Below, piece by piece: positions 1,459-41,985 of a stretch of DNA of 50,908 nucleotides (position 1 is its first letter; every line of letters begins with the position of its first letter). The notes beneath the pieces were generated by a model. That model searched no databases, was not told where the DNA came from, and saw only the letters and a program-made list of their open reading frames with translations. The stretch is from Gammaproteobacteria bacterium. GTDB taxonomy: Bacteria; Pseudomonadota; Gammaproteobacteria; Steroidobacterales; Steroidobacteraceae. The DNA is taken from positions 1 through 50,908 of the forward strand of contig JAURLT010000033.1 of NCBI GenBank assembly GCA_030831085.1. The letters run 5' to 3'. The position numbers and the translations under genes were made by a program.

Positions 1459-2849
1459 GTAGGCTGGTCGTTGTTTCCAATCGTGTTGATCTTCCCCCGG
1501 GAGACACCGCCCCCGGGGGTCTTGCCATCAGTCTGGCGGCCACGATTCGCCACACAAACAGCCTTTGGATTGGATGGAGCGGCCAGGTTGGAGCCTTGAG
1601 TGATGTGCCAAGAAGGCATAACCAGAACGGGATCGAGTACGCCGTAGTGGAACTGTCGATCGACGATTACCAACACTACTACCTTGGATTCTGCAATCGG
1701 GTGCTATGGCCATTGAGCCATGGACAACTCCCGGCTCCGGACGCTGAAGGAGGTGCCTGGTACCGCGCCTATCGGCGCGTGAATTTTCGAATGGCTAACC
1801 AGATCAAGGGATCTCTGAAGCATGACGATGTACTGTGGGTGCACGACTACCATCTGTTGCCGCTGGGGCATTTTTTAAGGCAAGCCGGATGTCGGAACCC
1901 CATCGGTCATTTTCTGCACGTGCCGTTTCCAGCACTTGCAGATGGACCGGTGAGCCGTGAACTGCTCGGGAATTTATTGGCCTACGATTTGCTGGGTTTC
2001 CAGACCCCGAACGACCTTGCGGCCTTTGAGGCAGTGGCGCGCCGCCATTGGGGGGAGCATGCAGTGACCCCTGCTGGCGTTGCCAATGGGCAGGGAGGCC
2101 TCACGGCCACCGGCGTTTTTCCACTCGGAGTCGACATCGATTATTTGCGCCGCACAGCCTCGGCGACGATGAGGGAGGCTGCGCTGCGCTGGTGGTCTGT
2201 GGGTCAGCCTGGCCAGCGCGTCATTGGCGCTGACCGTCTGGATATCAGCAAGGCCTTGCCACAGCGCCTGCGGGCCTACAGGCAGCTATTGACGAATTGG
2301 CCGGCCAGACCGCGGCCCAACTATCTGCAGTTCATAACACCGTCGCGGCTCGCTCTCGATGCTCACCGCGAACTGCAGGAATCGATCCGTCGGGAAGCTG
2401 ATTTATCCAATTCCTCCTCCGACTTGCGGTGCGTCTTTGCCGCCGTCCCCCATGACGAACTCATGGGAATTCTGGCGAGCGCCGACGTTGGTCTGGTTAC
2501 TCCCCGGGCGGATGGAATGAATCTGTTGGCCAAGGAATTTTTGGCCGTACAGCCGGAGGAAGATCCCGGTGTGCTGGTGCTCTCGCGGGGAGCGGGCGCT
2601 GCGGTCGAGTTGGAGGCGGCCATACTGGTCCCGGCAGACGACCAGAACAGCCAAGCCGAGGGGCTTCGCCTTGCGCTTGAGATGCCACTGACGGAGCGTC
2701 GCTCACGTCATCAGTCGCTGCTGCGCGCATTGCGTCGTAACGAACTGCCGCGCTGGCAACAGCGATTCGTGGGTCGATTGCTTCAGGCCCGGCGCCCTGG
2801 CCTGGCAATTCGGCCTGGAGGCGGTCTATGCGACGCGGACCTCGCCTGA
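1455..2849 (+). CDS. otsA: Alpha,alpha-trehalose-phosphate synthase (UDP-forming), GT20 family
   Basis: The ORF track gives 1386..2849. I chose the in-frame ATG at 1455 (MSRLVVVSNRV...), which matches the OtsA N-terminus and overlaps the otsB stop. The product is about 464 aa, with GT20-like blocks (WVHDYHLLPL, LLGFQT). Confidence 0.9.
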   Translation: MSRLVVVSNRVDLPPGDTAPGGLAISLAATIRHTNSLWIGWSGQVGALSDVPRRHNQNGIEYAVVELSIDDYQHYYLGFCNRVLWPLSHGQLPAPDAEGGAWYRAYRRVNFRMANQIKGSLKHDDVLWVHDYHLLPLGHFLRQAGCRNPIGHFLHVPFPALADGPVSRELLGNLLAYDLLGFQTPNDLAAFEAVARRHWGEHAVTPAGVANGQGGLTATGVFPLGVDIDYLRRTASATMREAALRWWSVGQPGQRVIGADRLDISKALPQRLRAYRQLLTNWPARPRPNYLQFITPSRLALDAHRELQESIRREADLSNSSSDLRCVFAAVPHDELMGILASADVGLVTPRADGMNLLAKEFLAVQPEEDPGVLVLSRGAGAAVELEAAILVPADDQNSQAEGLRLALEMPLTERRSRHQSLLRALRRNELPRWQQRFVGRLLQARRPGLAIRPGGGLCDADLA

Positions 2850-3863
2850 TCCGGCGCGAACTGCCCCAATCCTTTTAAAACCTGCGGCCTCTAGGGCTGC
2901 AACGCTCTCCCGGGGTACGGCCGCCAGCAGGCCGCCTGAGGTCTGTGGGTCCTGCAGCACCGCAAGCACCGCCGGATCGACCTCATTCATGCCCACCTTC
3001 AGGTATCGGTGAGCCGAGGTCCTTACTCCGGCAGCCGCCGCCTCCAAAGCGCCGGGCAAGACAGGCAACAGGCTCGTATCGACAACGAGGTCGACGCCTG
3101 ATTGACGCGCCATTTCGCCTGCATGCCCAAGCAATCCGTACCCGGTTATGTCGGTGACCGCATGGGGTTGATGCCCCTGCGATCGTAGCGCCTCCGCGGC
3201 TGCGCGGTTGGTCGCCCTCATCACGCGCAGGGCTGCCGGAAGATGCACTTCCGACCTGCTTGATAGCAAAAGGCCGGTGCCGAGCTGCTTTGACAACATC
3301 AGGACGTCGCCGTCCTGTGCGCCCGACTTTCGCCAGATCTTGCCTGGATGGAGGAAGCCGATCACGCAAAGACCGAATACCGGTTCTGCGCAACGAATCG
3401 AATGTCCGCCGAGGATGGCGCCCCCGCAGCTGGCGACCAAGGCAGCTGCGGCCCGGTTGACCTCAGCCACTACAGAATCTGGTACAACCGCGGGAAATCC
3501 GCAGACGGTCAATGCTAGTACGACCTCGCCGCCCATGGCATATATGTCACTGACCGCGTTGGCGGCTGCAATGGTCCCGTAGTCGTCCGGATCATCGACC
3601 AAGGGTGGAAAGAAATCGACGGTGGCGACCAACGCCCGATCGTCAGCCAGAGGATAGACGACCGCATCGTCCGCGGGATCAAGCCCCACCAGTTCCTGAA
3701 CGTTCGTCAGTCCAGTGGCGGCAACGGTCTCCACCAATCGTGACACCAAGTCGGGTGGAGCCTTCGCTGCGCAGCCGCCAGAACCACTCAGGGCGCGCAA
3801 CCGTATGGGCGCCTGGAGACCAGGCTTGTCAATCAGGGTCAACGGCTCAGTACCGCAACTCAC
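2826..3863 (-). CDS. selD: Selenophosphate synthetase (selenide, water dikinase), Cys-type
   Basis: 345 aa. SGGCAAK aligns to E. coli GAGCGCK (catalytic Cys17 and Lys20). DDAVVY and TVDFFPPLVDDPDDYGTIAAANAVSDIYAMGG align to DDAAVY and [32 protein letters not shown]. The fold is PurM-like. The ATGA at 3860-3863 overlaps the upstream ACAD gene. Confidence 0.8.
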   Translation of the reverse strand: MSCGTEPLTLIDKPGLQAPIRLRALSGSGGCAAKAPPDLVSRLVETVAATGLTNVQELVGLDPADDAVVYPLADDRALVATVDFFPPLVDDPDDYGTIAAANAVSDIYAMGGEVVLALTVCGFPAVVPDSVVAEVNRAAAALVASCGGAILGGHSIRCAEPVFGLCVIGFLHPGKIWRKSGAQDGDVLMLSKQLGTGLLLSSRSEVHLPAALRVMRATNRAAAEALRSQGHQPHAVTDITGYGLLGHAGEMARQSGVDLVVDTSLLPVLPGALEAAAAGVRTSAHRYLKVGMNEVDPAVLAVLQDPQTSGGLLAAVPRESVAALEAAGFKRIGAVRAGSGEVRVA

Positions 3864-7329: not shown

Positions 7330-7665
7330 TTGCGCAGAGCGCAGGGCGCCATCGTAAACATCGGGGCCGCTGCGGCGTTTTACCGGTCTGGCGCGGGCAT
7401 GGGGCCCTACGCTGCCAGTAAGGCAGCCGTAGGTCGAATGACGGAGAGCCTCGCGGCGGAAGAAATTCGCAACGGTGTACGGGTCAATGCAGTACTGCCG
7501 ACCATCATGGATACCCCTGCCAATCGGCGGGACATGCCCGACGCTGACTTTTCTACATGGGTCACGCCGGATGAGGTGGCTGAGGTCATCGCCTTTCTGT
7601 TGTCCTCCTCAGCGAGCGGCGTGACCGGCGCGAGCATTGTCGTCAACGGCCGTATCCAGCCCTGA
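7330..7665 (+). pseudogene. C-terminal remnant (about 110 aa) of a short-chain dehydrogenase/reductase
   Basis: GAIVNIG...YAASKAAV (catalytic YxxxK)...VRVNAVLPTIMDTP is the C-terminal half of a classical SDR. It has a TTG start, and an in-frame stop lies at 7303-7305 immediately upstream, so the Rossmann TGxxxGIG half is absent. Confidence 0.5.
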
Positions 7666-7843
7666 GCCTGCCGAACACAAGCGGGTGAGGGCCCCAGACT
7701 GGCAAGGTGCGCTCGCACGGCGGGCATTGACGGGCCTGTTCGTCAGTGAGTATGTTGAGTCGGGCTCGCTCACCCAGCCAAAGGTCCTCAACATCTTGAT
7801 TTGCGCTCCTGCAAGATCGATCTGCCGATTGCGCCCGGGATTG

Positions 7844-8386
7844 ATGGCTCTGCTCAGCATCCTGTTCCTTGCCCCGGCAGTCACGTTTGCCGACCCAGAT
7901 GCCCGGCGTGCGGGGATGGTCGAAGCCAGTGCCGAGTTCTCCGGCCGGCTGCGCGCTGCCCTGCAGGCGGCGATGAGAGAAGGGGGGCCTGTCGCGGCAA
8001 TCCAGGTTTGCCATCAGCAGGCCCCGGCCATCGCTAGGGCGGTCGGTGCCGAACGGAGCCTGCTCGTCAGGCGGACCGGTGTGCGCCTCCGCAATCCGGG
8101 CAATGTGGCCGATCCCCTGGACCAGCAGTTGATGGAGGACTTCGCCCGTCAGATTGCCGGAGGCAAGGACCCAGCGGCTCTGGAGGACCTCTCATCCACG
8201 ACCGACGGGCGTCTCCGCTATACCCGTGCCATTCCCGTCGAGGCCGTCTGCCTGGCCTGCCATGGCGAAACGATCGCCCCGTCCGTCTCCGAGGCCATCA
8301 CGGCCCACTATCCCGATGACCGGGCCACTGGCTTCCGGCCGGGGCAACTGAGAGGCCTGCTGGTGGTTGAGGCCCTGAACCCATGA
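7844..8386 (+). CDS. Periplasmic heme-c binding DUF3365 (Tll0287-like) domain protein
   Basis: The ORF track gives 7637..8386. I chose the in-frame ATG at 7844, which yields a signal peptide MALLSILFLAPAVTFA. It has a CLACHG CxxCH heme-c attachment motif, and the AIQVCHQQAPAIA region is typical of DUF3365. Confidence 0.55.
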   Translation: MALLSILFLAPAVTFADPDARRAGMVEASAEFSGRLRAALQAAMREGGPVAAIQVCHQQAPAIARAVGAERSLLVRRTGVRLRNPGNVADPLDQQLMEDFARQIAGGKDPAALEDLSSTTDGRLRYTRAIPVEAVCLACHGETIAPSVSEAITAHYPDDRATGFRPGQLRGLLVVEALNP

Positions 8387-10008
8387 GCATCACGCCGGCG
8401 GTCCTGCTGGTGGGCCTCGCCCAGGGGCTTCTGTTGTGGTTCTTGCATCATGCTGTGGCGGGCGGCGTCTGGCCGGCTGCGGGCCCTGGCCTGTGGCCGA
8501 TCTTCTATCTGGTGGTGCTGCTGCTGCCCCCCACGCTGTTGCTCCTGTGGGAGCAGCGCACTCGTCGCACTCTTCAGTTCCTGCTCGGCGGCATGGCGCT
8601 GTTCCTGGCCTCCAGTGCGCGCGCCCTGCTCGGCGAATTGCCGGTGCCGGGCACCGGCCAGGAGCCTGATGAAGTGGTAGTGCTGGGCTATCTGCTGCCT
8701 CTGGCGGCGGCGTGGCTGCTGGCCGTGCCGCTTTGGCGGGCGTCCCTTGAGGGTGGGCGCTGGCCTCCGGCGTATGCCGAGCTGTTTCGTGTCGCCTCGC
8801 GCAGCTACCTGACGCTGCTTGAATCTGCTGCGGTGATCCTGCTGTTCTGGGGCCTGATCGGCCTCTGGAGCGCACTGTTCCTGACGTTGGGTATCGAGTT
8901 GTTCCGCGACCTGTTCACCCATCCGGGATTCGTCTACCCGGCCACTTGCGTAGTGTTTGCTGCGGCCGTCCGCCTGGTCGCCGGCAGCGACCGCCTGCTG
9001 GATGGCCTGCTCGATCAGTTGCTGGGCCTGCTCAAGTGGCTGGCTCCGCTGGCCCTGGTGATCCTGGTGGCCTTCGTGGCCGCACTGGTGCCGCGCCTGC
9101 CCGCGCTGTTGGCCAGTGGCGAGCGGGTGATGGACAGCCACTGGCTGCTGTGTCTGGTCGTAGCAATGGTGCTGCTGCTCAACGCCGCGTTTCGCGATGG
9201 CGAGTCAGGGCCAGGTTACGGCCGATGGCTGGCCCAGATACTGCGGCTGGCGCCGCCCCTGATGCTCGTTGTGGCCCTTACGGCGACGTATTCACTGATT
9301 GTGCGTAGCACCGCCTTCGGACTTACTCCGCCACGTTTCTGGGGGCTGGCCATCGCCGGCCTGGCCGTGTTGTCCTCGGTTGGGTACAGCTATGCGAGCT
9401 GGCGTCGCGGCCCCTGGATGGGCGAGTTGAGGCGGGTGAACCTGTGGCTGGTCCTGGTCGCTCTGGCGGTCCTGCTGCTCAGCCTGACGCCGGCTGGCGA
9501 CCCCCTGCGCTGGAGCATCGTCGATCAACGGGCCCGGGCGTTGGCTGCCCGAACGCCAGAGGCGCGTCAGGGTCCGCTGGAGTTTCTGCGTTTCGATGCA
9601 GGCGAGGGTGGGCGTCGGGTTATCGCCGAGCTGGCACGCGCCGCCATCCAGGGCGCCCCGGCTGCGCTGCAGGCAGAGGCGGTAGCCATGGCGAGCCTGC
9701 AGGGTCGTGGCGCCAGGCCCGCGCTTAGCCCCGAGGTTCTGCAGGCGGAGGTGGTCCGTTGGCGGGAGAAACTGCAACTCCTGCCGGGGGGCACCCCGGT
9801 CCCCGGGCGATTTTCTGCTTCCCTCGACCAAGCCCTGGCCAGCCTGGTGAGCCAGGCGGGGGCGGGGGAAAAGCTGCCTTCCCTGCTGCTGGTACTGGCC
9901 GACACGGACGGCGACGGTCTCGAGGATGGCTTGCTGATCGTTGGCCCCCGTTCCGAAGGGGCCGTCCAAACTACCCGTTACCTGCCGCTCGTCCCACGCG
10001 ATGATTGA
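8383..10008 (+). CDS. Large polytopic membrane protein of unknown function (about 10 TM plus a C-terminal soluble region; possibly DUF4153-type)
   Basis: 541 aa. The ATGA overlap with the previous gene indicates co-translation. It has many Leu/Ala-rich predicted TM helices and no catalytic motif I can name. Confidence 0.5.
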   Translation: MSITPAVLLVGLAQGLLLWFLHHAVAGGVWPAAGPGLWPIFYLVVLLLPPTLLLLWEQRTRRTLQFLLGGMALFLASSARALLGELPVPGTGQEPDEVVVLGYLLPLAAAWLLAVPLWRASLEGGRWPPAYAELFRVASRSYLTLLESAAVILLFWGLIGLWSALFLTLGIELFRDLFTHPGFVYPATCVVFAAAVRLVAGSDRLLDGLLDQLLGLLKWLAPLALVILVAFVAALVPRLPALLASGERVMDSHWLLCLVVAMVLLLNAAFRDGESGPGYGRWLAQILRLAPPLMLVVALTATYSLIVRSTAFGLTPPRFWGLAIAGLAVLSSVGYSYASWRRGPWMGELRRVNLWLVLVALAVLLLSLTPAGDPLRWSIVDQRARALAARTPEARQGPLEFLRFDAGEGGRRVIAELARAAIQGAPAALQAEAVAMASLQGRGARPALSPEVLQAEVVRWREKLQLLPGGTPVPGRFSASLDQALASLVSQAGAGEKLPSLLLVLADTDGDGLEDGLLIVGPRSEGAVQTTRYLPLVPRDD

Positions 10009-10294: not shown

Positions 10295-10866
10295 AGCCCA
10301 GACCGCTTATCGCGCCGTGCCCGGATGAAGTGCTTCCCCAGTCCATGCGTGAGGCGGTGGCCAGATCGCGAAAATTGCGTGGCGACGATACCTTCATCCG
10401 CGTGATGGGTCATGCGCCGGAAATGTACGAGTGGTACGGTGATTTTTACCGCCGGATTTTCCACGGCGGCCGTGTAGGGGCTGCTTACAAGGAGCTGCTC
10501 CGTTACAGGCTCTCGACGCTGCACGGCTGTGCCTTCTGTAACAAGGGCAACCGCGAGGATGCGCTGGCAGCGGGCCTCAGCCCCGATCAACTGCGCCACA
10601 TCGACGACCCCGGCGCCGATTGCTGGAGTGCCGCGCAGGCGGTGGTCATCAGGCTGGCGGGAGAAATGGCCCTGACCCGTCCATCCGGCTCTCTCTCCCC
10701 CACGCTGCACGCCGAGCTGTCCGAGCACTTCGACGAAGGCCAGATCCTGGAGCTGGGCATCACCATGGCCGTATTGACCGGCATGGCAAAGTTCCTGTTC
10801 GTCTTCGACCTCGTGGAGCGCGAGGATTATTGCGAGTTCGGGCCGGCGCCCCCTACCGTACCGTGA
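10291..10866 (+). CDS. Carboxymuconolactone decarboxylase (AhpD-like) family protein
   Basis: 191 aa. HGCAFCNKG is the AhpD/CMD CxxC active-site context. Confidence 0.65.
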   Translation: MKPRPLIAPCPDEVLPQSMREAVARSRKLRGDDTFIRVMGHAPEMYEWYGDFYRRIFHGGRVGAAYKELLRYRLSTLHGCAFCNKGNREDALAAGLSPDQLRHIDDPGADCWSAAQAVVIRLAGEMALTRPSGSLSPTLHAELSEHFDEGQILELGITMAVLTGMAKFLFVFDLVEREDYCEFGPAPPTVP

Positions 10867-11293
10867 TGTTGATGACCGGCGAAACCAGCGCCGGCTCATG
10901 GGGGATGTGGTTGCGGTCGGCCAAGACCAGTTGCAGGGTGTGGGATCCCGCGGGCAGGTCCAGGGTAGTTTCCGTCTGACCCTTGCCGAAATGGACGTGG
11001 TTGGCATCCATCGGAATGATGGCGCCAGCCGGCGGGGTGGGAGCATTGATGATCAGGTGGTGGTGGCCGGTCGCCGGGAAATCGATGCCGGCCGGGGCGA
11101 TGCCCATGCCCTGGAGGCCCATGACCACCCGCACGGGTCCAGAGATCACCGCCCCATCGGCGGGCTCCACGAAATACACGCTGGCGCCCGGTACGGAGGG
11201 GGTGACGGGCATGACGGCCGTTTGTTCTGCGCCCGAGGCCAAGGCCAGCAGGCTACCGAAAGACAGGCAGAGCGCGCGGATGGTGGGTGACAT
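10853..11293 (-). CDS. Secreted His-rich periplasmic protein (DUF4399-like), possible metal binding
   Basis: Signal peptide MSPTIRALCLSFGSLLALASGA. ATGHHHLIINAP and HVHFGKGQTE resemble DUF4399. 146 aa. Confidence 0.45.
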   Translation of the reverse strand: MSPTIRALCLSFGSLLALASGAEQTAVMPVTPSVPGASVYFVEPADGAVISGPVRVVMGLQGMGIAPAGIDFPATGHHHLIINAPTPPAGAIIPMDANHVHFGKGQTETTLDLPAGSHTLQLVLADRNHIPHEPALVSPVINITVR

Positions 11294-11404
11294 TTCAAGG
11301 CCTCCGGAGGGGAACTTGCGATTGGGCTACGAATCTACCCTTCGCACGCCGCAGCGGCAATCGCGCGGGCGGCCGGGGAGCTCGATGTGGCATCATTTTC
11401 CTCT

Positions 11405-11884
11405 ATGAAGCACTCGATCTCCCTGGGGCTGCTGCTGGCTATCCTCTGGTGGTGCCTGTCGGGCTATCCCAAGCCGCTGCTGCTGGGGCTCGGTGCCGCG
11501 AGCGTGGTGTTCACCCTCTGGTTCGCGCACCGACTGGACGTGGTCGATCACGAAAGCCACCCGGTGCATATCAGCGGTGCCTTGCTGGCCTACTGGGGTC
11601 GGCTGACGGTTGAGATCCTCCGCTCCAGCGCCCAGGTGATCGGCACGATCCTCTCGCCGAAGCCAGCCATCGCCCCCTATTTCCTCCGGGTCAAGGTCGG
11701 TCAGCCCAGTGACCTGGGTAAGGTCATCCTTGGCAACTCCATCACCCTGACCCCCGGGACCGTGACTGTCCTTGTCAATGGCGACGAACTGCTTGTGCAC
11801 GCCCTCTCGCCCGTGTCCGGCGAAGGCGTTTCGCAAGGGGACCTGGATCGGCTGATTCCCGCGGATTGCGAGCGGCAGGCTTGA
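11405..11884 (+). CDS. mrpE: Na+/H+ antiporter subunit E (MnhE/MrpE)
   Basis: The track starts at a GTG at 11387. The ATG at 11405 gives MKHSISLGLLLAILWWCLSG, about 159 aa. GTVTVLVNGDELLVHAL is typical of MnhE. Confidence 0.7.
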   Translation: MKHSISLGLLLAILWWCLSGYPKPLLLGLGAASVVFTLWFAHRLDVVDHESHPVHISGALLAYWGRLTVEILRSSAQVIGTILSPKPAIAPYFLRVKVGQPSDLGKVILGNSITLTPGTVTVLVNGDELLVHALSPVSGEGVSQGDLDRLIPADCERQA

Positions 11885-12150
11885 TGCTGTTTGTGATTGC
11901 AATCGCTGTCCTGGTGGCCATGGCGCTGGCGTTGTTGCGGGCCTTTTTGGGACCCACCGTGTTCGACCGCATCCTCGCCGTGAACAGTTTCGGGACTAAG
12001 ACCGTGCTCCTCATCGCGCTGCTGGCTGAAGCGTCCGGTCGGGGTGATTATCTGGACCTTGCCCTCCTGTATGCGCTGCTCAACTTCATCGGCACGGTGG
12101 CCCTGCTGCGCTACACGGAGCAGGAACCGCGTCGGCAGGGCCAGCCATGA
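11884..12150 (+). CDS. mrpF: Na+/H+ antiporter subunit F (MnhF/MrpF)
   Basis: The ATG at 11884 overlaps the mrpE stop (TGATG); the track uses a TTG at 11866. MLFVIAIAVLVAMALALLRAFLGPTVFDRILAVNSFGTKTVLLIALL fits MnhF. Confidence 0.7.
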   Translation: MLFVIAIAVLVAMALALLRAFLGPTVFDRILAVNSFGTKTVLLIALLAEASGRGDYLDLALLYALLNFIGTVALLRYTEQEPRRQGQP

Positions 12151-12458
12151 TGCTGGCCGATGTCATTTCCGCTGGCTTGCTGGGTGTTGGAGCCGCCATG
12201 CTGGTGATCGGCAGCCTCGGTATCAACCGGTTTCCGCATTTCTACTCCAGGCTGCACGCAGCGGGCGTGGTGGATACCATAGCGTCCGGCTTGTTCCTGG
12301 CCGGCCTGGCCGTTCATTTCGGACCTGGTCTCGTGACCATCAAGCTGCTGTTGATCTTCATATTCCTGTTGTTTACCAGTCCGACCGCTTGCCACGCGCT
12401 GGCCAGGGCCGCTTACTCCAGCGGCCTGCGCGAACCCGAGTCGGAGGATGAGCGGTGA
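12147..12458 (+). CDS. mrpG: Na+/H+ antiporter subunit G (MnhG/MrpG)
   Basis: 103 aa. Three TM helices fit MnhG. The start overlaps the mrpF stop (ATGA). Confidence 0.7.
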   Translation: MMLADVISAGLLGVGAAMLVIGSLGINRFPHFYSRLHAAGVVDTIASGLFLAGLAVHFGPGLVTIKLLLIFIFLLFTSPTACHALARAAYSSGLREPESEDER

Positions 12459-12994
12459 TAGAGGAACTGATCGACGTTCTGTTGCTCGTCGCACTCCTGC
12501 TGGTCGCCCTGCAGGTCATCGGCAGCCGGGGATTGTTGGCTGCGATCATGACCTTCGGCGCCTTCAGCCTGGTCTGCGCAGGGCTGTTTATTACCCTTGA
12601 TGCCGTGGATGTGGCCTTTACCGAGGCGGCGGTCGGTGCTGGCGTGGCGACGCTGCTGATGCTCGCCGCCCTGCGGCGCTGCGGAGGCGAACCCGAGGAG
12701 TCGCCGCGCGTGCACTGGGGTGGCCTGGTGACCGTCCTGGTGCTCGGTGGTCTGCTGGTCTGGGGTATCCGCGACCTGCCGCCGGTCGGCCTGGCCGACA
12801 ATCCGGCGCACGAGCACGTGGCGCCTCGCTATCTGGAGCAATCGGGCACGGAGATTGGCATTCCCAACGTGGTCACCAGCGTCCTGGCCAGTTACCGGGG
12901 CTTTGATACCCTCGGTGAGGTCGTGGTGATTTTCACCGCCGGTCTCGGTGTCTGGCTGCTCCTTTCGGGTCGTCGGCCGGAGGAAGAGGAATGA
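12455..12994 (+). CDS. MnhB-domain (DUF4040) membrane protein, the free-standing equivalent of the MrpA C-terminal domain (MbhD/E-like)
   Basis: GTG start overlapping the mrpG stop. 179 aa with about 5 TM helices. Its position between mrpG and mrpB mirrors the Mbh/Mbx-type order. Confidence 0.5.
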   Translation: MIEELIDVLLLVALLLVALQVIGSRGLLAAIMTFGAFSLVCAGLFITLDAVDVAFTEAAVGAGVATLLMLAALRRCGGEPEESPRVHWGGLVTVLVLGGLLVWGIRDLPPVGLADNPAHEHVAPRYLEQSGTEIGIPNVVTSVLASYRGFDTLGEVVVIFTAGLGVWLLLSGRRPEEEE

Positions 12995-13413
12995 GCGACG
13001 ACCTGATCCTGCGAGTCGTCAGCAAGTTCCTGATCCCGGTGATTGTGCTGTTCGGCCTGTATGTGCAGTTCCATGGGGAGTATGGGCCCGGAGGCGGATT
13101 CCAGGCGGGGGTCATTCTGGGCTCTGCCGTGATCCTCTACCTGCTGGTCTTTGGCGCAGACGCGGCGCACGCCGTCGTGCCCACGAGGTGGCTGCGCTGG
13201 CAGGCGGCAGCTGGTGTCTTGCTATATGCCGGCACCGGCGTGGCGACTGTGCTGCTCGGCGGCAATTTCCTCGATTACGACGTACTGGCGAACAGCCCTG
13301 TGGCCGGCCAGCACCTGGGCATTATCCTGATTGAGCTCGGCGTCATGTTGACCGTGTCCTCGACGATCGCGCTGCTGGCCATGCTGTTTGCCGAGAGTCC
13401 GGAGGAACCGTGA
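12991..13413 (+). CDS. mrpB: Na+/H+ antiporter subunit B (MnhB/MrpB)
   Basis: FHGEYGPGGGFQAGVILGSAVILY is the MnhB signature. 140 aa. ATGA overlap. Confidence 0.7.
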   Translation: MSDDLILRVVSKFLIPVIVLFGLYVQFHGEYGPGGGFQAGVILGSAVILYLLVFGADAAHAVVPTRWLRWQAAAGVLLYAGTGVATVLLGGNFLDYDVLANSPVAGQHLGIILIELGVMLTVSSTIALLAMLFAESPEEP

Positions 13414-13757
13414 TCGATCTGGGGCTCTACAACTACTGGATCGTGATCGCGCTGATGATGTCGGGGCTGTATGCACTGATCGCGCGTGGCAACCTCATCC
13501 GCAAGCTGATTGGCCTCAATATCTTCCAGGCTTCGGTGTTTCTGCTCTATATCAGCGTGGGCTTCGTGCGCGATGGCGCCGCCCCCATCCTCGCTCCCGA
13601 TGTCGAGAGTTACTCCAATCCCTTGCCCCACGTGCTGATCCTCACCGCCATCGTGGTGGGCGTGGCTACCACCGCGCTCGGTTTGGCGCTTGCGGTTCGC
13701 ATCCACGGCGCCTACGGCAGCATCGACGATGATGTGCTCGACCGGCAACGAGACTAG
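13410..13757 (+). CDS. mrpC: Na+/H+ antiporter subunit C (MnhC/MrpC, NuoK-like)
   Basis: 115 aa. LIGLNIFQASVFLLYISVGF is NuoK/MnhC-like. GTGA overlap. Confidence 0.7.
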   Translation: MIDLGLYNYWIVIALMMSGLYALIARGNLIRKLIGLNIFQASVFLLYISVGFVRDGAAPILAPDVESYSNPLPHVLILTAIVVGVATTALGLALAVRIHGAYGSIDDDVLDRQRD

Positions 13758-13760
13758 GCC

Positions 13761-15233
13761 GTGATCCTCTCTCATGCCCAGGTCCTGGTGGTTGCGCTGC
13801 CGTTGCTGGCGGTGCCCATCTGCGCCCTGCTGCCCGGGCGCCGTCTGCCGGGCGTCTTTGCGACTCTTGTGGCGTGGGCAGTTCTGGCCCTTGCGCTGCT
13901 GCTGATGCAGGAGGTCTCTGCGGCGGGTGTGCTGCGCTATCAGCTCGGCGGTTGGGCGCCGCCCTGGGGCATCGAGTACCGGCTCGACCGCCTGGCGGCC
14001 CTCGTGCAATTGCTGCTGGCGCTCATCGCGGCCGTCGTCTTGCCCTACGCCGCGCGTAGCCTGAGCGACGAAGTGGGAGAGAGGTCAGGCGGAGCTTTTG
14101 CCGCGCTGCTGCTGCTGCTGACGGGACTGCTGGGTATCGTCGCGACCGGTGACGCGTTCAATGTATTTGTGTTTCTGGAAATCTCGTCACTCGCCAGCTA
14201 CACGCTCATCGCGCTCGGTCGACGCCGGCGTGCGCTGGTGGCCTCGTTCCGCTACCTGATCCTCGGCACCGTGGGCGCCACCTTTTTCCTGATCGGACTG
14301 GGCCTGCTTTACGCCCTGACGGGCACCTTGAACATGGACGACCTGGCGGCCCGCATGCCACCGCTGGCCGGGAGTCCCGCTGCCACTACGGCATTGTTTT
14401 TCATCGTCGTCGGTCTGGGCCTCAAGGCAGCGATGTTTCCCTTGCATCAATGGTTGCCGGACGCCTACGCAGAGGCGCCGCCGGCGGTCAGTGCCTTCAT
14501 GGCAGCGACCTCCACCAAGGTGGCGCTCTATGCCCTCGCCAGATTCCTGTTCGGGGTCTTCGGTTTGCAGCAACTCACCGAAGTCCCGATGCTGCAGGAG
14601 GGGCTGCAGTGGCTGGCAGTGGCGGGCATGCTGGGCGGCTCAATCCTGGCGCTGCGCGCTGCGGATATCGGCCGCATTCTTGCCCTGTCGAGCGTTGCCC
14701 AGGTGGGTTACATCCTGCTGGGGTTTGCCTTGCTTAGTACGGCAGGCGTGGCTGCCGGGCTGGTGCATCTTTTTAATCATGCGCTGATGAAGGGCGCACT
14801 GTTCCTGGCCTTGGGTGCGATGATCCACCGCTGCGGCGGCGGTGAGCTTGCGCGTTTGGAGGGGGTAGGGCACCGCATGCCCTGGACCATGGCGGCCTTC
14901 ATGGTGGGTGCGCTGAGCCTGATCGGCGTTCCGCTCACGGCCGGCTTTGTGGGCAAGTGGTACCTGGTGTCGGCCGTGATCGACCAGAGTGCGTGGTGGC
15001 TGGTGGCTGCCATCCTGGTGTCGTCCATCCTCTCGGTCTTCTATTTGTGGCGGATCGTCGAGGTAGCCTACCGACGACCTGCTGTGATGCCGCCCCGCGC
15101 GGAGGCGCCGCTCATCCTGCTGCTGCCGACTATGCTGCTGGCGCTGGCTAATCTCCTGGTGGGCTTGAACTCCTCGCCCTTGGTCAGCTGGGCGGAGGCC
15201 GCGAGCCTCTCCCTGCTCGGAACGGGGTCATGA
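13761..15233 (+). CDS. MrpD/NuoN-like proton-pumping antiporter subunit (copy 1)
   Basis: 490 aa with about 14 TM helices. The LFNHALMKGALFLALGAMIH block is characteristic of complex-I antiporter-like subunits. Confidence 0.7.
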   Translation: MILSHAQVLVVALPLLAVPICALLPGRRLPGVFATLVAWAVLALALLLMQEVSAAGVLRYQLGGWAPPWGIEYRLDRLAALVQLLLALIAAVVLPYAARSLSDEVGERSGGAFAALLLLLTGLLGIVATGDAFNVFVFLEISSLASYTLIALGRRRRALVASFRYLILGTVGATFFLIGLGLLYALTGTLNMDDLAARMPPLAGSPAATTALFFIVVGLGLKAAMFPLHQWLPDAYAEAPPAVSAFMAATSTKVALYALARFLFGVFGLQQLTEVPMLQEGLQWLAVAGMLGGSILALRAADIGRILALSSVAQVGYILLGFALLSTAGVAAGLVHLFNHALMKGALFLALGAMIHRCGGGELARLEGVGHRMPWTMAAFMVGALSLIGVPLTAGFVGKWYLVSAVIDQSAWWLVAAILVSSILSVFYLWRIVEVAYRRPAVMPPRAEAPLILLLPTMLLALANLLVGLNSSPLVSWAEAASLSLLGTGS

Positions 15234-16690
15234 GCTCAATGGACTGGCTGGCCTGCCTGCTGTGGGTGCCGGCGCTGGGCGTGCTGGGTATCGTGGCGGC
15301 CCGGCGCCATGCCAATCTTCGCGAGTCGGTAACGCTCGTGACGGCCCTGGCGCTGTTTCTGTCCGTCATTCAACTCGCCGCCTCCGGCGAGTCCCCGCGC
15401 TGGGTGCTGGCCGAGCCCCTGCCCGGGCTAGAGCTGGTGCTGTCTCCGGAGCCTCTGGGTCTGATGTTCGGTCTCATCGCCAGCGGTCTGTGGATCGTTA
15501 CGTCAATCTATGCCTTCGGTTACATGCGGGCCAAGCATGAGTCGCACCAGACCCGCTTTTATGCCTGTTTTGCCCTCTCCATCGGGGCAGCCATGGGCAT
15601 CGCCATGTCGGCCAACCTGCTCACGCTGTTTGTCTTTTATGAAGTCCTGACGCTCTCCACCTATCCGCTGGTCGCTCATCACGGCGACGACAAGGCACGA
15701 GCCGGGGCGAGGACCTACCTGCGGATTCTGCTAGGTACGTCCATCGGCCTGCTCCTGCCAGCCATCATCTGGACGTATCACCTCGCCGCGGGGGGCGACT
15801 TTCAGCCTGGTGGAATCCTTGCGGGCCGCGTCGATGCGACTACAGCCGGGCTGCTGCTGGCGCTTTATGTTCTGGGTGTCGGCAAGGCAGCGGTCATGCC
15901 GGTACACCGTTGGCTGCCGGCGGCCATGGTGGCACCGACCCCGGTCTCTGCATTGTTGCACGCCGTGGCGGTGGTCAAGGCGGGCGTGTTTGTCATACTA
16001 AAAGTGGTGGTCTACGTCTTCGGGATGGAATTCCTGGCGGGCGTGCCATTCGAGCGTGCACTGCTCTGGCTGGCCGGTTTTACCGTCCTGGCGGCTTCGC
16101 TGGTGGCCCTCAGGCAGGATAACCTCAAGCGCTTGCTCGCTTATTCCACCATCGGCCAGTTGTCCTACGTGGTCATGGCTGCGCTCACCCTCGGTGCGAC
16201 CGCGGGCTTGGCCGCCGCCTTGCATATCGCAGCGCATGCGGTTGCGAAGATCACCCTGTTCTTCACGGCGGGAGCCATCTACGTGGCGTCCGGCAAGACC
16301 GAGGTGTCGCAGCTCGACGGCATCGGGCGGCGGATGCCGGTGACCATGACCGCCTTCGCCGTTGCCGCACTCAGCATGGTTGGCTTACCGCCGACCGTGG
16401 GCTTCATCTCCAAGTGGATGATCCTGCAGGGTGCGCTGGAGGCGGACCAGCTGTTTGTCGTCACGGTGCTGGTCATCTCCACGGGACTGAATGCGGCGTA
16501 CTTCATGCCCATTGTCCACCGCGCCTTCTTCCGCGAAGAGCAGTCGGTCCCGAAAAATCACGGTGAGGCTCCGCCGCCAATGGTGGCTGCGCTGGTCGTC
16601 ACCGCGCTGTTGACCCTCCTCGGTGCGCTGGCCGCAGACGCGTTGATTGCCATGCAGTCGCCAGTGATGTTGGCCGGGAGAGTGGAATGA
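15230..16690 (+). CDS. MrpD/NuoM-like proton-pumping antiporter subunit (copy 2)
   Basis: 486 aa. ATGA overlap. The LHIAAHAVAKITLFFTAGAIY block is present. Confidence 0.7.
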   Translation: MSSMDWLACLLWVPALGVLGIVAARRHANLRESVTLVTALALFLSVIQLAASGESPRWVLAEPLPGLELVLSPEPLGLMFGLIASGLWIVTSIYAFGYMRAKHESHQTRFYACFALSIGAAMGIAMSANLLTLFVFYEVLTLSTYPLVAHHGDDKARAGARTYLRILLGTSIGLLLPAIIWTYHLAAGGDFQPGGILAGRVDATTAGLLLALYVLGVGKAAVMPVHRWLPAAMVAPTPVSALLHAVAVVKAGVFVILKVVVYVFGMEFLAGVPFERALLWLAGFTVLAASLVALRQDNLKRLLAYSTIGQLSYVVMAALTLGATAGLAAALHIAAHAVAKITLFFTAGAIYVASGKTEVSQLDGIGRRMPVTMTAFAVAALSMVGLPPTVGFISKWMILQGALEADQLFVVTVLVISTGLNAAYFMPIVHRAFFREEQSVPKNHGEAPPPMVAALVVTALLTLLGALAADALIAMQSPVMLAGRVE

Positions 16691-16935
16691 AGCGATGGTT
16701 CGAGCGCCTTGAGGGCGAGCGGCTGCCCCGCCGCTTCTGGCTGATCCTGTGGGCGGCGCTGGGCCTGAGCCTGGCGGCCCAGCTGCTGGTGCACCTGCAC
16801 GGATATTTCGGCTTCGATGAGTGGTTCGGTTTCAACGCTGTCTGGGGGTTCCTGACCTGCGTGGTCATGGTGCTTGGGGCGAAGCTGCTGGGGGTTGCGC
16901 TTAAGCGGCCTGAGGATTACTACGACCATGACTGA
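16687..16935 (+). CDS. Small membrane protein (82 aa) embedded between antiporter subunits
   Basis: ATGA overlap upstream, and ATGACTGA overlap with the next gene. There is one clear TM segment (FWLILWAALGLSLAAQLLV) and a second hydrophobic stretch (VWGFLTCVVMVLGAKLLGV). Confidence 0.5.
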   Translation: MKRWFERLEGERLPRRFWLILWAALGLSLAAQLLVHLHGYFGFDEWFGFNAVWGFLTCVVMVLGAKLLGVALKRPEDYYDHD

Positions 16936-18586
16936 GCTGGCTTTACTTCCCGCCGTGTGGTTAATGACTGGGGCGTTGTTGTCTGCTGTGCTGACCGGTC
17001 GAGCCCGGGAAGGGGTGATCCTGCTGGCCCCGCTGCTGGCCCTGTGGGCGGTTTGGCAACTGCCTGACGGCAACCTGTGGTCGATCAGCTACCTGGGCAT
17101 GACGCTCGAGCCCCTGTACGCGGATTCCCTCCGCCGGCTCTTCGCGACGGTGTTCTGCCTGATGGCCTTTACCGGTGCGCTGTTCGCCTTGCGCCAGTCG
17201 GCGGGTCGCGAATTGTCTGCCGCACTCGCCTATGCCGGGGGCGCCTTGGGAGTGTGCTTTGCCGGTGACCTGTTCACCCTGTTCCTGTTCTGGGAAGTCA
17301 TGGCGGTTTTTTCGACGCTGGTGATCTGGTGTGGCGGCGGTGACGGTGCCCGCCAGGCTGGCTTCAGATACGCGGTACTGCACTTTCTGGGTGGCGTAGT
17401 CCTGATGGCCGGCATCATCTGGCTGGGCGTCGAATCCGGGTCGCTGTCCATACGCGTACTGGAGCTGACCCACCCCGCAGCATGGCTGGTGCTTATCGGC
17501 GTGCTGGTCAACGCTGCAGCGCCGCCCTTTAGTGCCTGGGTGGCGGATGCCTATCCGGAGGCAAGCGCAGGCGGCAGCGTTTTCCTTTCGGCGTTCACCA
17601 CCAAGACAGCGGTGCTGGTCCTGATGCTCCTGTTTCCCGGCACTAAATTGCTCATCGGGGTAGGCCTGTTCATGGTGTTCTACGGCATTGTCTACGCGCT
17701 GCTCGAGAACGACATGCGACGCATCCTTGCGTATTCGATCGTCAACCAGGTCGGATTCATGGTCTGCGCCGTCGGCATTGGAACCGGGATGGCCCTGAAC
17801 GGTGCCGCGGCGCATGCCTTTGCCCATATCATCTACAAGGCGCTGCTGCTCATGAGCGCCGGTACGGTGCTCTGGCGAACCGGTCGACGGAAGTGCACCG
17901 ATCTCGGCGGACTGTACCGCTCGATGCCGTTCACCACCGCCTGCGGCATCATCGGCGCTCTCGCTATCTCCGCATTTCCCTTTACCTCTGGCTTCGTCAG
18001 CAAGTCCCTGACCAGCCAGGCGGCTGCTGACCTGTCGATGACCTGGGTCTGGCTGGCACTGACGGCCGCCTCGGCCGGGGTGTTCCTGCATGCGGGCATC
18101 AAGTTTCCGTGGTTTGTGTTCTTCCAGCGTGATTCCGGGCTCAGGCCGGCCGACCCCCCCTGGAATATGCGCCTGGCCATGGGCCTGTTTGCCCTGCTGT
18201 GCATCGTCCTTGGCTGCTTTCCTTCGCTGTTGTACGGTTTGCTGCCGTACCCTGTGGATTACCGCCCCTATACGGCGTCTCACCTCGTCAGCCAATTCCA
18301 GCTGCTGTTGTTTTCCGGTCTGGCCTTCTTTGCCCTGCTGCCAGCCATGCGTCGCACGCTGACCATCACGCTGGATTTCGATTGGCTCTATCGGGTGCCG
18401 CTGCAGCGCGTGGTGCTGGGGGTCGGCCAATTGCTGGAAATCTCGCGGGCGGCAATCGGCCAGGGGATGGTCAGCCTGATTGACCGGTTGCCTTCGCCCG
18501 AGCGGCTGGCACCGGTGACTGCGCCCGCCGGCGGCATGCTTCTGGTGCTGTTGATGGTTCTAATCGCGGGGATGCTGCTGGCCTGA
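16928..18586 (+). CDS. MrpA N-domain/NuoL-like antiporter subunit that lacks the fused MnhB domain (copy 3)
   Basis: The in-frame ATG at 16928 (MTELALLPAV) overlaps the small ORF stop; the track starts at 16874. 552 aa. The AFAHIIYKALLLMSAGTVL block fits a NuoL/MrpA-type subunit. Confidence 0.65.
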   Translation: MTELALLPAVWLMTGALLSAVLTGRAREGVILLAPLLALWAVWQLPDGNLWSISYLGMTLEPLYADSLRRLFATVFCLMAFTGALFALRQSAGRELSAALAYAGGALGVCFAGDLFTLFLFWEVMAVFSTLVIWCGGGDGARQAGFRYAVLHFLGGVVLMAGIIWLGVESGSLSIRVLELTHPAAWLVLIGVLVNAAAPPFSAWVADAYPEASAGGSVFLSAFTTKTAVLVLMLLFPGTKLLIGVGLFMVFYGIVYALLENDMRRILAYSIVNQVGFMVCAVGIGTGMALNGAAAHAFAHIIYKALLLMSAGTVLWRTGRRKCTDLGGLYRSMPFTTACGIIGALAISAFPFTSGFVSKSLTSQAAADLSMTWVWLALTAASAGVFLHAGIKFPWFVFFQRDSGLRPADPPWNMRLAMGLFALLCIVLGCFPSLLYGLLPYPVDYRPYTASHLVSQFQLLLFSGLAFFALLPAMRRTLTITLDFDWLYRVPLQRVVLGVGQLLEISRAAIGQGMVSLIDRLPSPERLAPVTAPAGGMLLVLLMVLIAGMLLA

Positions 18587-18669
18587 CGCTTCCGCGGCGA
18601 TAGCTACCGTTGATGGGCGTGGCAGACTTCCGGGTTGCCGTCAAAAACCGGGCATGCTGAGATGCGTGC

Positions 18670-20754
18670 ATGAAATTTCGCTACGCTGTGTTGCTGATGT
18701 TGGCGTGCCTGCCTCCCGCGTGGCTCGTGCTCGAACCGATTGGCCAGCCACCGCAAGCAGATCCACGTTCATTTATCGGACTGGGTGCAAGCCATGAGGT
18801 CAGGATTCGTCGTGACACCTGGGGCGTACCCCATATCAAGGGCGTGACCTCTGCCGATGCTGCCTTTGGCCTGGCCTACGCGCATTGCGAGGACGACTTC
18901 CAGACCATTGAGGACGTGCTGCTGGCCACCCGCGGCCGACTGGCCGAGGAGGCCGGGCCTGCTGCAGCGGTAGGTGATTATCTGGTTCATCTGCTCGACG
19001 TTCAGGCCACCGTCGAGGCTGGTTTTGAGGCGCTGCCCGCCGACCTGAGGGCCGTGCTGCAGGGCTATGCTGACGGCGTTAATTTCTACGTCGCAAAGAA
19101 TCCCGATCTGGCAAACCCGACCCTGCTGCCTGTGACGGACCGCGACATCGCCGCCGGTTTCGTGTTCAAGACCCCCTTCTTTTACGGCCTGGATCGCGAG
19201 CTGCGTCGCCTGTCCGAGGCGCCGGCGGACCCCTACCCCAAGGGATCCAATGCCGTGGCGCTGGCGCCTTCCCGCTCTGCGGAGGGGGCCACGCGACTGC
19301 TGGTCAACTCGCACCAGCCCTTCGAGGGCCCGGTGGCCTGGTACGAGGCCGTGGTGCAGAGCGACGATGGCTGGCATGTCGCCGGCGGCTTCTTTCCGGG
19401 CTCACCCTTCATGCTGCATGGGCACAACGAGCACCTCGCCTGGGCCAATACGGTCAACGCGCCCGACCTCGTGGATGTCTATCGGCTCGAGGTGGATCCG
19501 GGCGACCCTGAACGCTACCGATTCAATGGAGCATGGAAGCCCTTCGAGAAGCAGCGGGTGGGCATCCGGGTTCGGATCTGGGGGCCGTTTCACTGGACCT
19601 TCCGGCGCGAAGTACTGAAGAGTGTCCACGGCCCGGTGCTGGTCACCGATCACGGCCATTTCGCCTTGCGCTATGCCGGGATGGGGGAGTCGCGCCAGGC
19701 TCTGCAGTACTGGCGCCTGAATCGAGCCGAAAACCTGCAGGAGTGGAAGGAGGCGATGGCCCTGCAAGCGCTGCCCAGCATCAACTACCTGTATGCCGAT
19801 CGAGATGGCAACATCGGCTATGTCTACAACGGGCAGTTCCCGCGGCGGGCGGCGGGCGTGGATTGGTCCACCATCCTGCCTGGCGATCGGCCAGAGCTGG
19901 TCTGGAATGGCTACCTGGACTTCGACGCCGTGCCGCAGATATGGAATCCCGCTTCCGGGCTGCTGTTCAACGCCAACAACACGCCCTTTGTCGCCACGGG
20001 TGGTGACGATGGCCTGAACGAAGAGGACTTCGCCCCGGAGATGGGGATCCAGCAGGACATGACCAATCGGGCCTGGCGCCTGCTGGAAACCTACGGCTCG
20101 GATCCCGCAATCACCGACGATGAGTTTCATCGCTACAAGTACGACCTCACCTACAGCCCCCGCTCGGAAACGGCAGCCGTCGTCCGTGAGGTATTGGCGA
20201 GAAAAGCCGAGGCCGGTCCGAAACTTGCTGCGGAGCTGGACCTGTTGGCCAGCTGGGACCTGAATACCGACCGTGCCAACCGGGCTGCGCCGCTCGGCGT
20301 GCTCGCGGCAACCCACGTCATCAAGGCCCGGGAGGTCGGCAAAGTACCGGATGTCCTGGAGACGCTGGCTGAGGTGTCTGCCACGTTAAGGCGACATCAC
20401 GGACGTATCGATCCGCAATGGGCAGAGGTCAACCGCTTGCGCCGTGGCAGCGTGGATCTGCCGGTGGATGGTGGTCCGGATATCGTGCGGGCCATCTACG
20501 GGGCTGAAGATGAGGACGGCCGCTTGCGCGCTGTGGCGGGTGATACGCTGGTAATGTTCGTCAGCTGGGACCGTCGAGGCGAGCTGTCCAGCGAGGTTGT
20601 TCACCAGTTCGGCAGCGCCACCGGGCGGCCCGAATCACCCCACTATGCCGACCAAGTTCCCTTGTTTGCCGGAATGAAAACGCGCCCCGTACTGTTCACT
20701 GAAGAACAGCTGGCGGGGCGGGTGGCCGAAGACTATCGCCCAGGAGAACGCTAG
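18670..20754 (+). CDS. Penicillin acylase family Ntn-hydrolase (possible AHL acylase)
   Basis: 694 aa with a signal peptide. The RRDTWGVPHIKGVTSADAAFGLAYAHCEDD N-terminal block (GVPHI) and the overall size are typical of the PvdQ/QuiP/PGA family. Confidence 0.7.
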   Translation: MKFRYAVLLMLACLPPAWLVLEPIGQPPQADPRSFIGLGASHEVRIRRDTWGVPHIKGVTSADAAFGLAYAHCEDDFQTIEDVLLATRGRLAEEAGPAAAVGDYLVHLLDVQATVEAGFEALPADLRAVLQGYADGVNFYVAKNPDLANPTLLPVTDRDIAAGFVFKTPFFYGLDRELRRLSEAPADPYPKGSNAVALAPSRSAEGATRLLVNSHQPFEGPVAWYEAVVQSDDGWHVAGGFFPGSPFMLHGHNEHLAWANTVNAPDLVDVYRLEVDPGDPERYRFNGAWKPFEKQRVGIRVRIWGPFHWTFRREVLKSVHGPVLVTDHGHFALRYAGMGESRQALQYWRLNRAENLQEWKEAMALQALPSINYLYADRDGNIGYVYNGQFPRRAAGVDWSTILPGDRPELVWNGYLDFDAVPQIWNPASGLLFNANNTPFVATGGDDGLNEEDFAPEMGIQQDMTNRAWRLLETYGSDPAITDDEFHRYKYDLTYSPRSETAAVVREVLARKAEAGPKLAAELDLLASWDLNTDRANRAAPLGVLAATHVIKAREVGKVPDVLETLAEVSATLRRHHGRIDPQWAEVNRLRRGSVDLPVDGGPDIVRAIYGAEDEDGRLRAVAGDTLVMFVSWDRRGELSSEVVHQFGSATGRPESPHYADQVPLFAGMKTRPVLFTEEQLAGRVAEDYRPGER

Positions 20755-41980: not shown

Positions 41981-41985
41981 GTGCC

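Follow-up and report, generated by a model that had tools for sequence, protein, structure and literature searches.

Antiporters of the Mrp type are encoded in clusters of the order mrpABCDEFG (group 1), in clusters of the order mrpA'CDEFG with fused A and B (group 2), or in the clusters of irregular gene order that have been collected as 'group 3 Mrp' (PMC5703873), a class that includes all subunit types, often arranged as E-F-G-B-B'-C-D with extra D genes (PMC5703873, PMC8415708). The stand-alone mrpEFGBB'CD cluster of Pyrococcus furiosus (Pf1147-53) is built in this way, with B homologous to transmembrane helices (TM) 17-21 of MrpA (MbhD/E) and B' to MrpB, and deletion studies of this mrp cluster indicate Na+-coupled pH homeostasis (PMC8415708). 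In the cyanobacterium Aphanothece halophytica, the group 3 cluster mrpCD1D2EFGAB has been shown to be a Na+/H+ antiporter (cited in PMC5703873). Extra large subunits have been recorded as well: the genome paper on the Solemya velum symbiont names a 'multi-subunit MrpEFGBBCDD complex' (PMC4287430), and a Nitrospira preprint describes two additional NuoM/L-like genes after a group 3 Mrp (10.1101/2020.03.05.977850). Here we describe a ten-gene cluster at positions 11387-18586 of a 50,908-nucleotide stretch of DNA (contig JAURLT010000033.1 of assembly GCA_030831085.1, a gammaproteobacterium of the Steroidobacteraceae; the whole stretch is called the window below). The ten genes probably form a single, translationally coupled operon that encodes a stand-alone antiporter of ten subunits from the Mrp/CPA3 (cation:proton antiporter 3) family, a group 3 Mrp with a split MrpA that would perform Na+ (possibly K+)/H+ antiport. 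Our literature search found no paper on the full ten-gene unit (EFGBBCDD-x-D) or on its 82-aa gene.

Layout, distribution and closest relatives of the operon

The ten consecutive plus-strand genes listed in the earlier note were all recovered at the same positions when the open reading frames (ORFs) were checked, in the order E-F-G-B1-B2-C-D1-D2-X82-D3:

11387-11884, plus strand: mrpE, 165 aa from GTG 11387 (alternative start ATG 11405); Pfam MNHE, E = 2.7e-26; first-position orthologue in 63 loci
11884-12150, plus strand: mrpF, 88 aa; Pfam MrpF_PhaF, E = 4.3e-19; alignable to 6cfw_B and 7qru_F
12147-12458, plus strand: mrpG, 103 aa; Pfam PhaG_MnhG_YufB, E = 3.6e-24; TIGR01300, 79.7 bits (cut-off 63.1)
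12455-12994, plus strand: B1, DUF4040 protein, MrpA C-terminal domain, 179 aa; Pfam MbhD and MbhE; NF009159, 194 bits (cut-off 141)
12991-13413, plus strand: B2, mrpB, 140 aa; Pfam MnhB, E = 3.6e-30; NF009162, 181.6 bits (cut-off 120)
13410-13757, plus strand: mrpC, NuoK-like, 115 aa; Pfam Oxidored_q2; NF005624, 133.8 bits (cut-off 95)
13761-15233, plus strand: D1, antiporter-like subunit of the MrpD/MbhH/NuoN type, 490 aa; Pfam Proton_antipo_M; top PDB matches MbsH, MbhH, MrpD
15230-16690, plus strand: D2, MrpA-N/NuoL-type core lacking the lateral helix, 486 aa; Pfam Proton_antipo_M; TM8 His
16687-16935, plus strand: X82, putative two-helix small membrane protein, candidate tenth subunit, 82 aa; no Pfam or NCBIfam match
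16928-18586, plus strand: D3, distal member of the antiporter-like subunits, PRK12668 clade, 552 aa; Pfam Proton_antipo_M; NF009310, 674 bits (cut-off 564)

Six junctions (F/G, G/B1, B1/B2, B2/C, D1/D2 and D2/X82) are 4-nt overlaps, and with ATG 11884 as the start of F, E and F share 1 nt (TGATG); the longest F ORF begins at TTG 11866. The 4-nt or 1-nt overlaps that the earlier note gives for nearly all junctions do not extend to the remaining two, an 8-nt overlap of X82 with D3 (ATGACTGA; D3 start at ATG 16928) and a gap of 3 nt between C and D1. The start/stop overlaps point to co-translation; a promoter/terminator scan of positions 10800-19000 gave no signal over shuffled expectation. Pfam family matches of the operon products ranged from E = 1e-11 to 1e-65, and four products exceeded NCBIfam equivalog cut-offs (NF009159, NF009162, NF005624 and NF009310/PRK12668), so the NCBI annotation pipeline already recognises such subunit sets. 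Taking Pfam, NCBIfam and PDB comparisons together, all seven Mrp subunit types are represented, with MrpA's N-terminal domain corresponding to D2 and its C-terminal domain to the free-standing B1; Proton_antipo_M in each of D1, D2 and D3 makes three antiporter-like subunits. The split MrpA and the three large subunits proposed in the earlier note were thereby borne out. With all subunit types in an irregular order, the operon has the make-up of group 3 Mrp and belongs to neither group 1 nor group 2, as its order is another one and its MrpA is split.

For distribution, 80 related loci were fetched and the ten window proteins were run against them by tblastn. The identical ten-gene order was found in 63 of the 80, and a further 14 were interrupted by contig ends but otherwise consistent with it; D3 relatives occurred in at least 588 species genomes when one genome per species was scanned. 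Most carriers belong to the gamma-, alpha- and betaproteobacteria, among them Haliea, Shewanella algicola, Woeseia, Arenicella, Pelagibius and Ca. Accumulibacter. The arrangement is thus taxon-typical, the outcome that the earlier note had itself named as counting against its reading, and common, not a one-off, and the claim that its permuted order is novel had to be given up in view of this conservation, of the existing NCBIfam models and of the published group 3 class. The window locus adds a further copy to an Mrp operon type that is common in Proteobacteria and annotated automatically; its apparent oddities of order and splitting are typical of the family. Two gammaproteobacterial metagenome-assembled genomes (MAGs) carry only C-D1-D2-X82-D3 (L060, 6388-11593; L061, 6478-11668), with E, F, G, B1 and B2 not found within 10 kb. 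These two loci suggest that, as in Ehrlichia, a 'proton module' and a 'small-subunit module' are separable parts of the operon.

Two further observations concern the surroundings of related loci. In an Arenicella MAG (L004; 159-2355, minus strand, and 2498-3469), the ten-gene operon has right beside it a second, divergently transcribed cluster of the group 3 Mrp type, with E, F, G, MbhD and MbhE+MnhB among its genes, and a LysR-type regulator gene separates the two. In 24 of the 80 loci (for example, L022, 3744-4358, and L004, 3789-4310), mrpE is preceded on its own strand, at a distance of roughly 70 nt, by a gene for a Rap1a-immunity-like protein (PF18602) of about 170-200 aa; the window does not have it.

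Among described systems, the P. furiosus group 3 Mrp shares with the window operon the leading E-F-G genes, a separate gene for the MrpA C-terminal domain followed by MrpB, MrpC and MrpD, and the absence of redox genes; it ends after one MrpD and has no subunit of the MrpA-N type, whereas the window operon adds D2, X82 and D3. The inventory of Ehrlichia chaffeensis is the same, the B genes are split alike and the sizes are nearly equal (E 163, F 89, G 99, DUF4040 181, B 139, C 111 and D-type subunits of 491, 489 and 519 aa; PMC8395091), but the Ehrlichia genes are dispersed over several loci instead of forming one operon. This gene set partially complemented the Na+-sensitive E. coli strain EP432 (PMC8395091). 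In the A. halophytica cluster, the order is likewise irregular and more than one MrpD-type gene is present; differing from the window, C-D-D come first, the large subunits apart from the A/B pieces number two instead of three, and no gene of the X82 type is reported for it.

The group 1 complexes of Bacillus pseudofirmus (7QRU) and Anoxybacillus flavithermus (6Z16) have the same seven subunit types. The Glu/Lys/His channel residues of their MrpD and MrpA-N are kept in D1 and D2, as are equivalents of the exit-site residues D776/E780 of MrpA and H34/F41 of MrpB. Relative to the group 1 order ABCDEFG, the window operon is rearranged to EFG-B1-B2-C-D1-D2-X82-D3, divides MrpA into D2 (core) and B1 (C-terminal domain) and is larger by one antiporter-like subunit (its third) and by a small tenth protein; it further departs from group 1 in having Asn for MrpF Asp38 and, in B1, a Glu placed one helical turn earlier, as in the Mbh type. 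The membrane arms of the membrane-bound hydrogenase (MBH, 6CFW) and of the membrane-bound sulfane reductase (MBS, 6U8Y) resemble the operon in their separate MbhD/MbhE-type pieces, in placing the E/F/G homologues (MbhA/B/C) first, and in their large subunits, to which D1 is nearest (MbsH/MbhH) and which include the top profile match of D3 (MbsH'). They differ in their number of antiporter-like subunits, one in MBH and two in MBS versus three here, and in possessing an MbhM/NuoH-like subunit and NiFe or NuoBCDI-like catalytic genes, which the window operon lacks; no MbhI-like protein was recognised among its products. With complex I (NuoJ/K/N/M/L), the operon has in common three consecutive antiporter-like subunits beside NuoK-like and NuoJ-like (MbhD) subunits, and a counterpart of the tail of the distal complex I subunit (TM15, lateral helix, TM16) is predicted in D3. 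Unlike complex I, it has no NuoH/A and no peripheral arm, MrpE/F/G/B are present, the TM12 residue is Lys in all three D subunits (Glu in NuoM, Asp in NuoL), and the predicted lateral helix of D3 measures only about 34 residues. A possible relation of D2 and D3 is to the two MrpD-like subunits that take the place of NuoL in the 'green complex I' known from rhizobia (PMC9040806).

Subunit assignments and conserved residues

B1 can be aligned to MrpA residues ~644-820 and also to MbsD/MbhD plus MbsE/MbhE. It had been taken for a DUF4040-like protein with an MnhB domain; the former designation agrees with the NF009159 match, while the latter was not upheld by Pfam, which assigns MbhD and MbhE. 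The YRGFDTLGE motif, which comprises the equivalents of MrpA D776/E780, is retained in B1. At the position of Bacillus E687, B1 has Gly, and a Glu occurs one helical turn earlier as in MbsD (Mbh/Mbs-type 'TEAAVGAG'). In B2, the equivalents of MrpB H34 and PGGGF41 are retained and the position of D121 is acidic (Glu); in MrpF, the D32/R33 pair is retained (B. pseudofirmus numbering). Roles at a proposed Na+ exit site have been described for D776/E780, H34, F41 and D121 (PMC9568556), and retention of their equivalents in B1 and B2, in the case of D121 as an acidic residue, supports the Mrp assignment.

Of 64 loci, 40 have B1 and B2 fused into a single ORF (for example, L021, 5411-6430), and the other 24, including the window (12455-13413) and the closest relative fetched (L001), have them as separate genes; NCBIfam models exist for the fused and for the split state. 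Because the split form recurs at this frequency alongside the fused one and has NCBIfam models of its own, the free-standing DUF4040 gene is, as judged from these sequences, a natural fission variant within one operon type in which fission and fusion have recurred, and not the product of a sequencing frameshift. The possibility raised in the earlier note, that this ORF is a frameshifted piece of an adjacent gene, thus fell away.

The roles of the D subunits were assigned from ranked HMMER scores against PDB chains and from signature residues, in place of a formal phylogeny. On these scores D1 is an MrpD/MbhH-like subunit (MbsH 225 bits, MbhH 197, MrpD 185). The best matches of D2 were NdhF, MrpA, MbhH and NuoL, and MrpA outscored MrpD in all three solved Mrp complexes; moreover, the TM8 histidine, which is specific to MrpA/NuoL (PMC7419157), is found in 77 of 79 D2 orthologues, and the D2 sequence terminates right after TM14. 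For D3, MbsH' and MbhH led the profile matches, followed by MrpD, MrpA and ND5, whereas Foldseek ranked MrpA first for the D3 model, then NuoL/ND5/NdhF. This AlphaFold2 model (mean predicted local distance difference test score, pLDDT, 82.5) has a confident core of 14 helices, TM15 at residues 450-475, a 34-residue helix at 485-518 and a terminal TM at 533-551, and the hydrophobicity and hydrophobic-moment profile of the D3 tail is compatible with the sequence TM, amphipathic helix, TM. The MrpA-N/NuoL sequence signature is therefore in D2 and the lateral-helix architecture in D3. The initial labelling had D1 and D2 both as MrpD/NuoMN-like and D3 as the NuoL/MrpA-N-like subunit: it holds for D1, it is to be moved from D3 to D2 as far as the sequence signature is concerned, and it is right for D3 in that the D3 model has a tail of the MrpA/NuoL type. 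D3 itself would constitute a separate clade with its own NCBIfam family, and its predicted tail resembles that of NuoL in its succession of TM15, amphipathic helix and TM16. The protein collection contains over 8,000 scored relatives of D3; where a source names them, the name is 'Na(+)/H(+) antiporter subunit D' or 'multicomponent Na+:H+ antiporter subunit D', and the near relatives are MAG proteins of Lysobacterales/Xanthomonadales/Steroidobacteraceae. D1, D2 and D3 have in common an invariant TM5 Glu, TM8 Lys, TM11 His/His/Lys and TM12 Lys, and TM7 Lys is retained in D1 and D2.

X82 lies between D2 and D3 in 79 of the 80 loci, the only locus without an X82 match being L079. Its invariant residues include H36, H38, F41, D44, W46 and F47 (an HxHG-F-D-WF loop) and a C-terminal R-x-x-DYY. 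A profile search of 1.84 billion representatives returned relatives that almost all measure 70-130 aa, 1,929 of them at E <= 1e-3 and 661 at E <= 1e-10. Comparison with the PDB gave no significant sequence match (best E about 1) and no Foldseek match, no Pfam or NCBIfam model matched the family, and where public sources name these proteins at all, it is as 'hypothetical protein' only. The AlphaFold2 model is a two-helix hairpin (pLDDT 73). From its conservation and position, X82 is best read as a candidate dedicated tenth subunit, so far unnamed. This large unnamed family is, together with clade-invariant Asn substitutions in MrpF and D3 that are taken up below, what we regard as modestly new in the present analysis.

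Proposed mechanism and alternative readings

Gene order and the structures solved for Mrp and MBH suggest a cation-handling module made up of E, G, F, B2, B1 and C, after which D1 (MrpD/NuoN-like), D2 (MrpA-N/NuoL-like core) and D3 (distal) would be three proton channels in series, like NuoN, NuoM and NuoL. The predicted amphipathic helix and terminal TM anchor of D3 may brace its neighbour, reaching back as in MrpA/NuoL, and the X82 hairpin would be a dedicated small subunit at the D2/D3 end. The proton-motive force would drive H+ inward via the D subunits while Na+ (possibly K+) is extruded via the small-subunit module, with coupling along the chain of conserved Glu/Lys/His residues. A third proton channel might plausibly raise the H+/cation ratio, which would be of help, when the driving force is low, in extruding cations or in pH homeostasis. 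That the ion is Na+ is supported by relatives which act in this way, namely, P. furiosus, cyanobacterial group 3 and Ehrlichia (PMC8415708, PMC5703873, PMC8395091). The family is of some bioenergetic interest as a redox-free relative of the membrane arm of complex I that occurs in nature with three channels and a conserved unnamed small subunit, and it could serve to test how added antiporter-like subunits alter the H+/ion ratio.

Several points weigh against this picture of a Na+-coupled Mrp complex. The MrpF position of B. pseudofirmus Asp38, a residue described as 'highly conserved' and proposed as a Na+ site from molecular dynamics simulations (PMC9568556), is Asn in 63 of 63 orthologues, and the TM7 Lys kept in D1 and D2 is replaced in D3 by Asn195 in 80 of 80 orthologues. 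In the D3 model, confidence is low for the part with the lateral helix (pLDDT about 50-70). The assumed order of subunits in the membrane derives from gene order and homologous structures.

One may tentatively go a step further and ask whether the ten-gene family is a distinct Mrp class, a mimic of the complex I proton module with three channels clamped by a distal amphipathic helix, with X82 as tenth subunit, both Asn substitutions and an altered stoichiometry or ion; we consider this conceivable but not likely.

The replacement of MrpF Asp38 and of the distal TM7 Lys by Asn, together with the gain of X82 (HxH...D...W), led us to consider that the same Mrp architecture might serve another transport chemistry, either K+/H+ or Ca2+/H+ exchange or a markedly different H+/cation stoichiometry. 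The invariance of both Asn residues and the clade-specific conservation of X82 would fit such a change, as would the 'TEAAVGAG' of B1 in place of a Glu at the Bacillus E687 position, and Mrp systems with other ions are known, for instance, Ca2+/H+ in Thermomicrobium roseum and K+ in Pha systems (PMC5703873). However, MBH and MBS share the TEAA motif and yet translocate Na+ (PMC8415708, PMC7684303), most of the remaining residues of the proposed Na+ path are conserved, and the Ehrlichia genes partly relieve the Na+ sensitivity of E. coli (PMC8395091). Moreover, many carrier MAGs bear marine names (Haliea, Woeseiaceae, Arenicella, Paraglaciecola, Shewanella algicola), which, so far as record titles can tell, would fit Na+ handling. 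On balance, a change of chemistry appears rather unlikely to us.

The preferred reading, a stand-alone Mrp antiporter, also has to be set against a membrane arm, orphaned or physically separate, that would be the docking site for a hydrogenase, a formate dehydrogenase or a Nuo-like module from another part of the genome. Leading E-F-G genes and a separate piece of the MbhD/E type indeed recall MBH/MBS arms, and the top profile match of D3 is MbsH'; the stand-alone cluster of Mbh-like architecture seen in the earlier note was confirmed in just these features. In MBH, MBS and complex I, however, the redox arm docks at a NuoH/MbhM-like subunit (PMC7419157), and Pfam detected none among the ten operon products. 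No NuoB/D, hydrogenase or other redox partner gene was among the Pfam-scanned genes of the 50-kb window, in agreement with the earlier statement that catalytic genes are lacking nearby, and the window holds no other Mrp or NuoL/M/N paralogue. Clustering of the flank ORFs of the 80 loci likewise revealed no recurrent redox neighbour, the sole frequent neighbour being the Rap1a-like gene (24 loci), and beside the split operons of L060 and L061 lie genes for chemotaxis, transporters, a copper chaperone and lipid functions. MbhM in conjunction with NuoB/C/D/I-like or NiFe catalytic subunits, the hallmark of MBH/MBS, was thus found neither in the operon nor among the Pfam-scanned window genes nor in related flanks, and of complex I the operon has only NuoK and NuoL/M/N homologues and an MbhD (NuoJ-related) piece. 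With no NuoH/MbhM-like subunit in the operon, no redox partner among the Pfam-scanned window genes or recurring in the related flanks, and stand-alone group 3 Mrp already an established category (PMC8415708), we regard the orphaned arm of a redox module, one of the two interpretations offered in the earlier note, as improbable.

That the 179-aa and 82-aa ORFs reflect an artefact or a decaying locus, through frameshift or over-calling, is hardly credible: the continuous B1-B2 ORF of the 40 loci in principle allows the window split to be a frameshift, but the split also occurs in L001 and the other split loci and alike in Ehrlichia (PMC8395091), both halves match full-length NCBIfam equivalog models of the split form end to end and over cut-off, the B1/B2 junction is a typical ATGA overlap, and X82, preserved with invariant motifs in 79 of the 80 loci, has 1,929 database representatives.

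Other genes of the window

A penicillin-amidase gene lies downstream of the operon, in accordance with the secreted acylase noticed there before. The other Pfam-scanned genes of the window encode trehalose synthesis proteins, an acyl-CoA dehydrogenase, TonB receptors, beta-lactamase-family enzymes, a Na+/solute symporter and TPR (tetratricopeptide repeat)-sulfotransferases. Just upstream of the mrp region (7637-10008), a gene for a Tll0287-like protein of 249 aa overlaps by 4 nt with one for a 541-aa protein, possibly as a two-gene unit; the latter protein has many hydrophobic segments in the manner of a polytopic membrane protein and no Pfam match. Genes for an OtsB/OtsA-like trehalose-phosphatase and trehalose-6-phosphate synthase and for a sodium:solute symporter were found at 700-2849 and 31087-32562, which is weakly consistent with a host lifestyle involving salt or osmotic stress. 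Finally, at 40181-43503 and 47869-49890, three TPR-repeat proteins fused to sulfotransferase or 2-oxoglutarate-Fe(II) oxygenase domains are encoded on either side of a TonB-dependent receptor gene.

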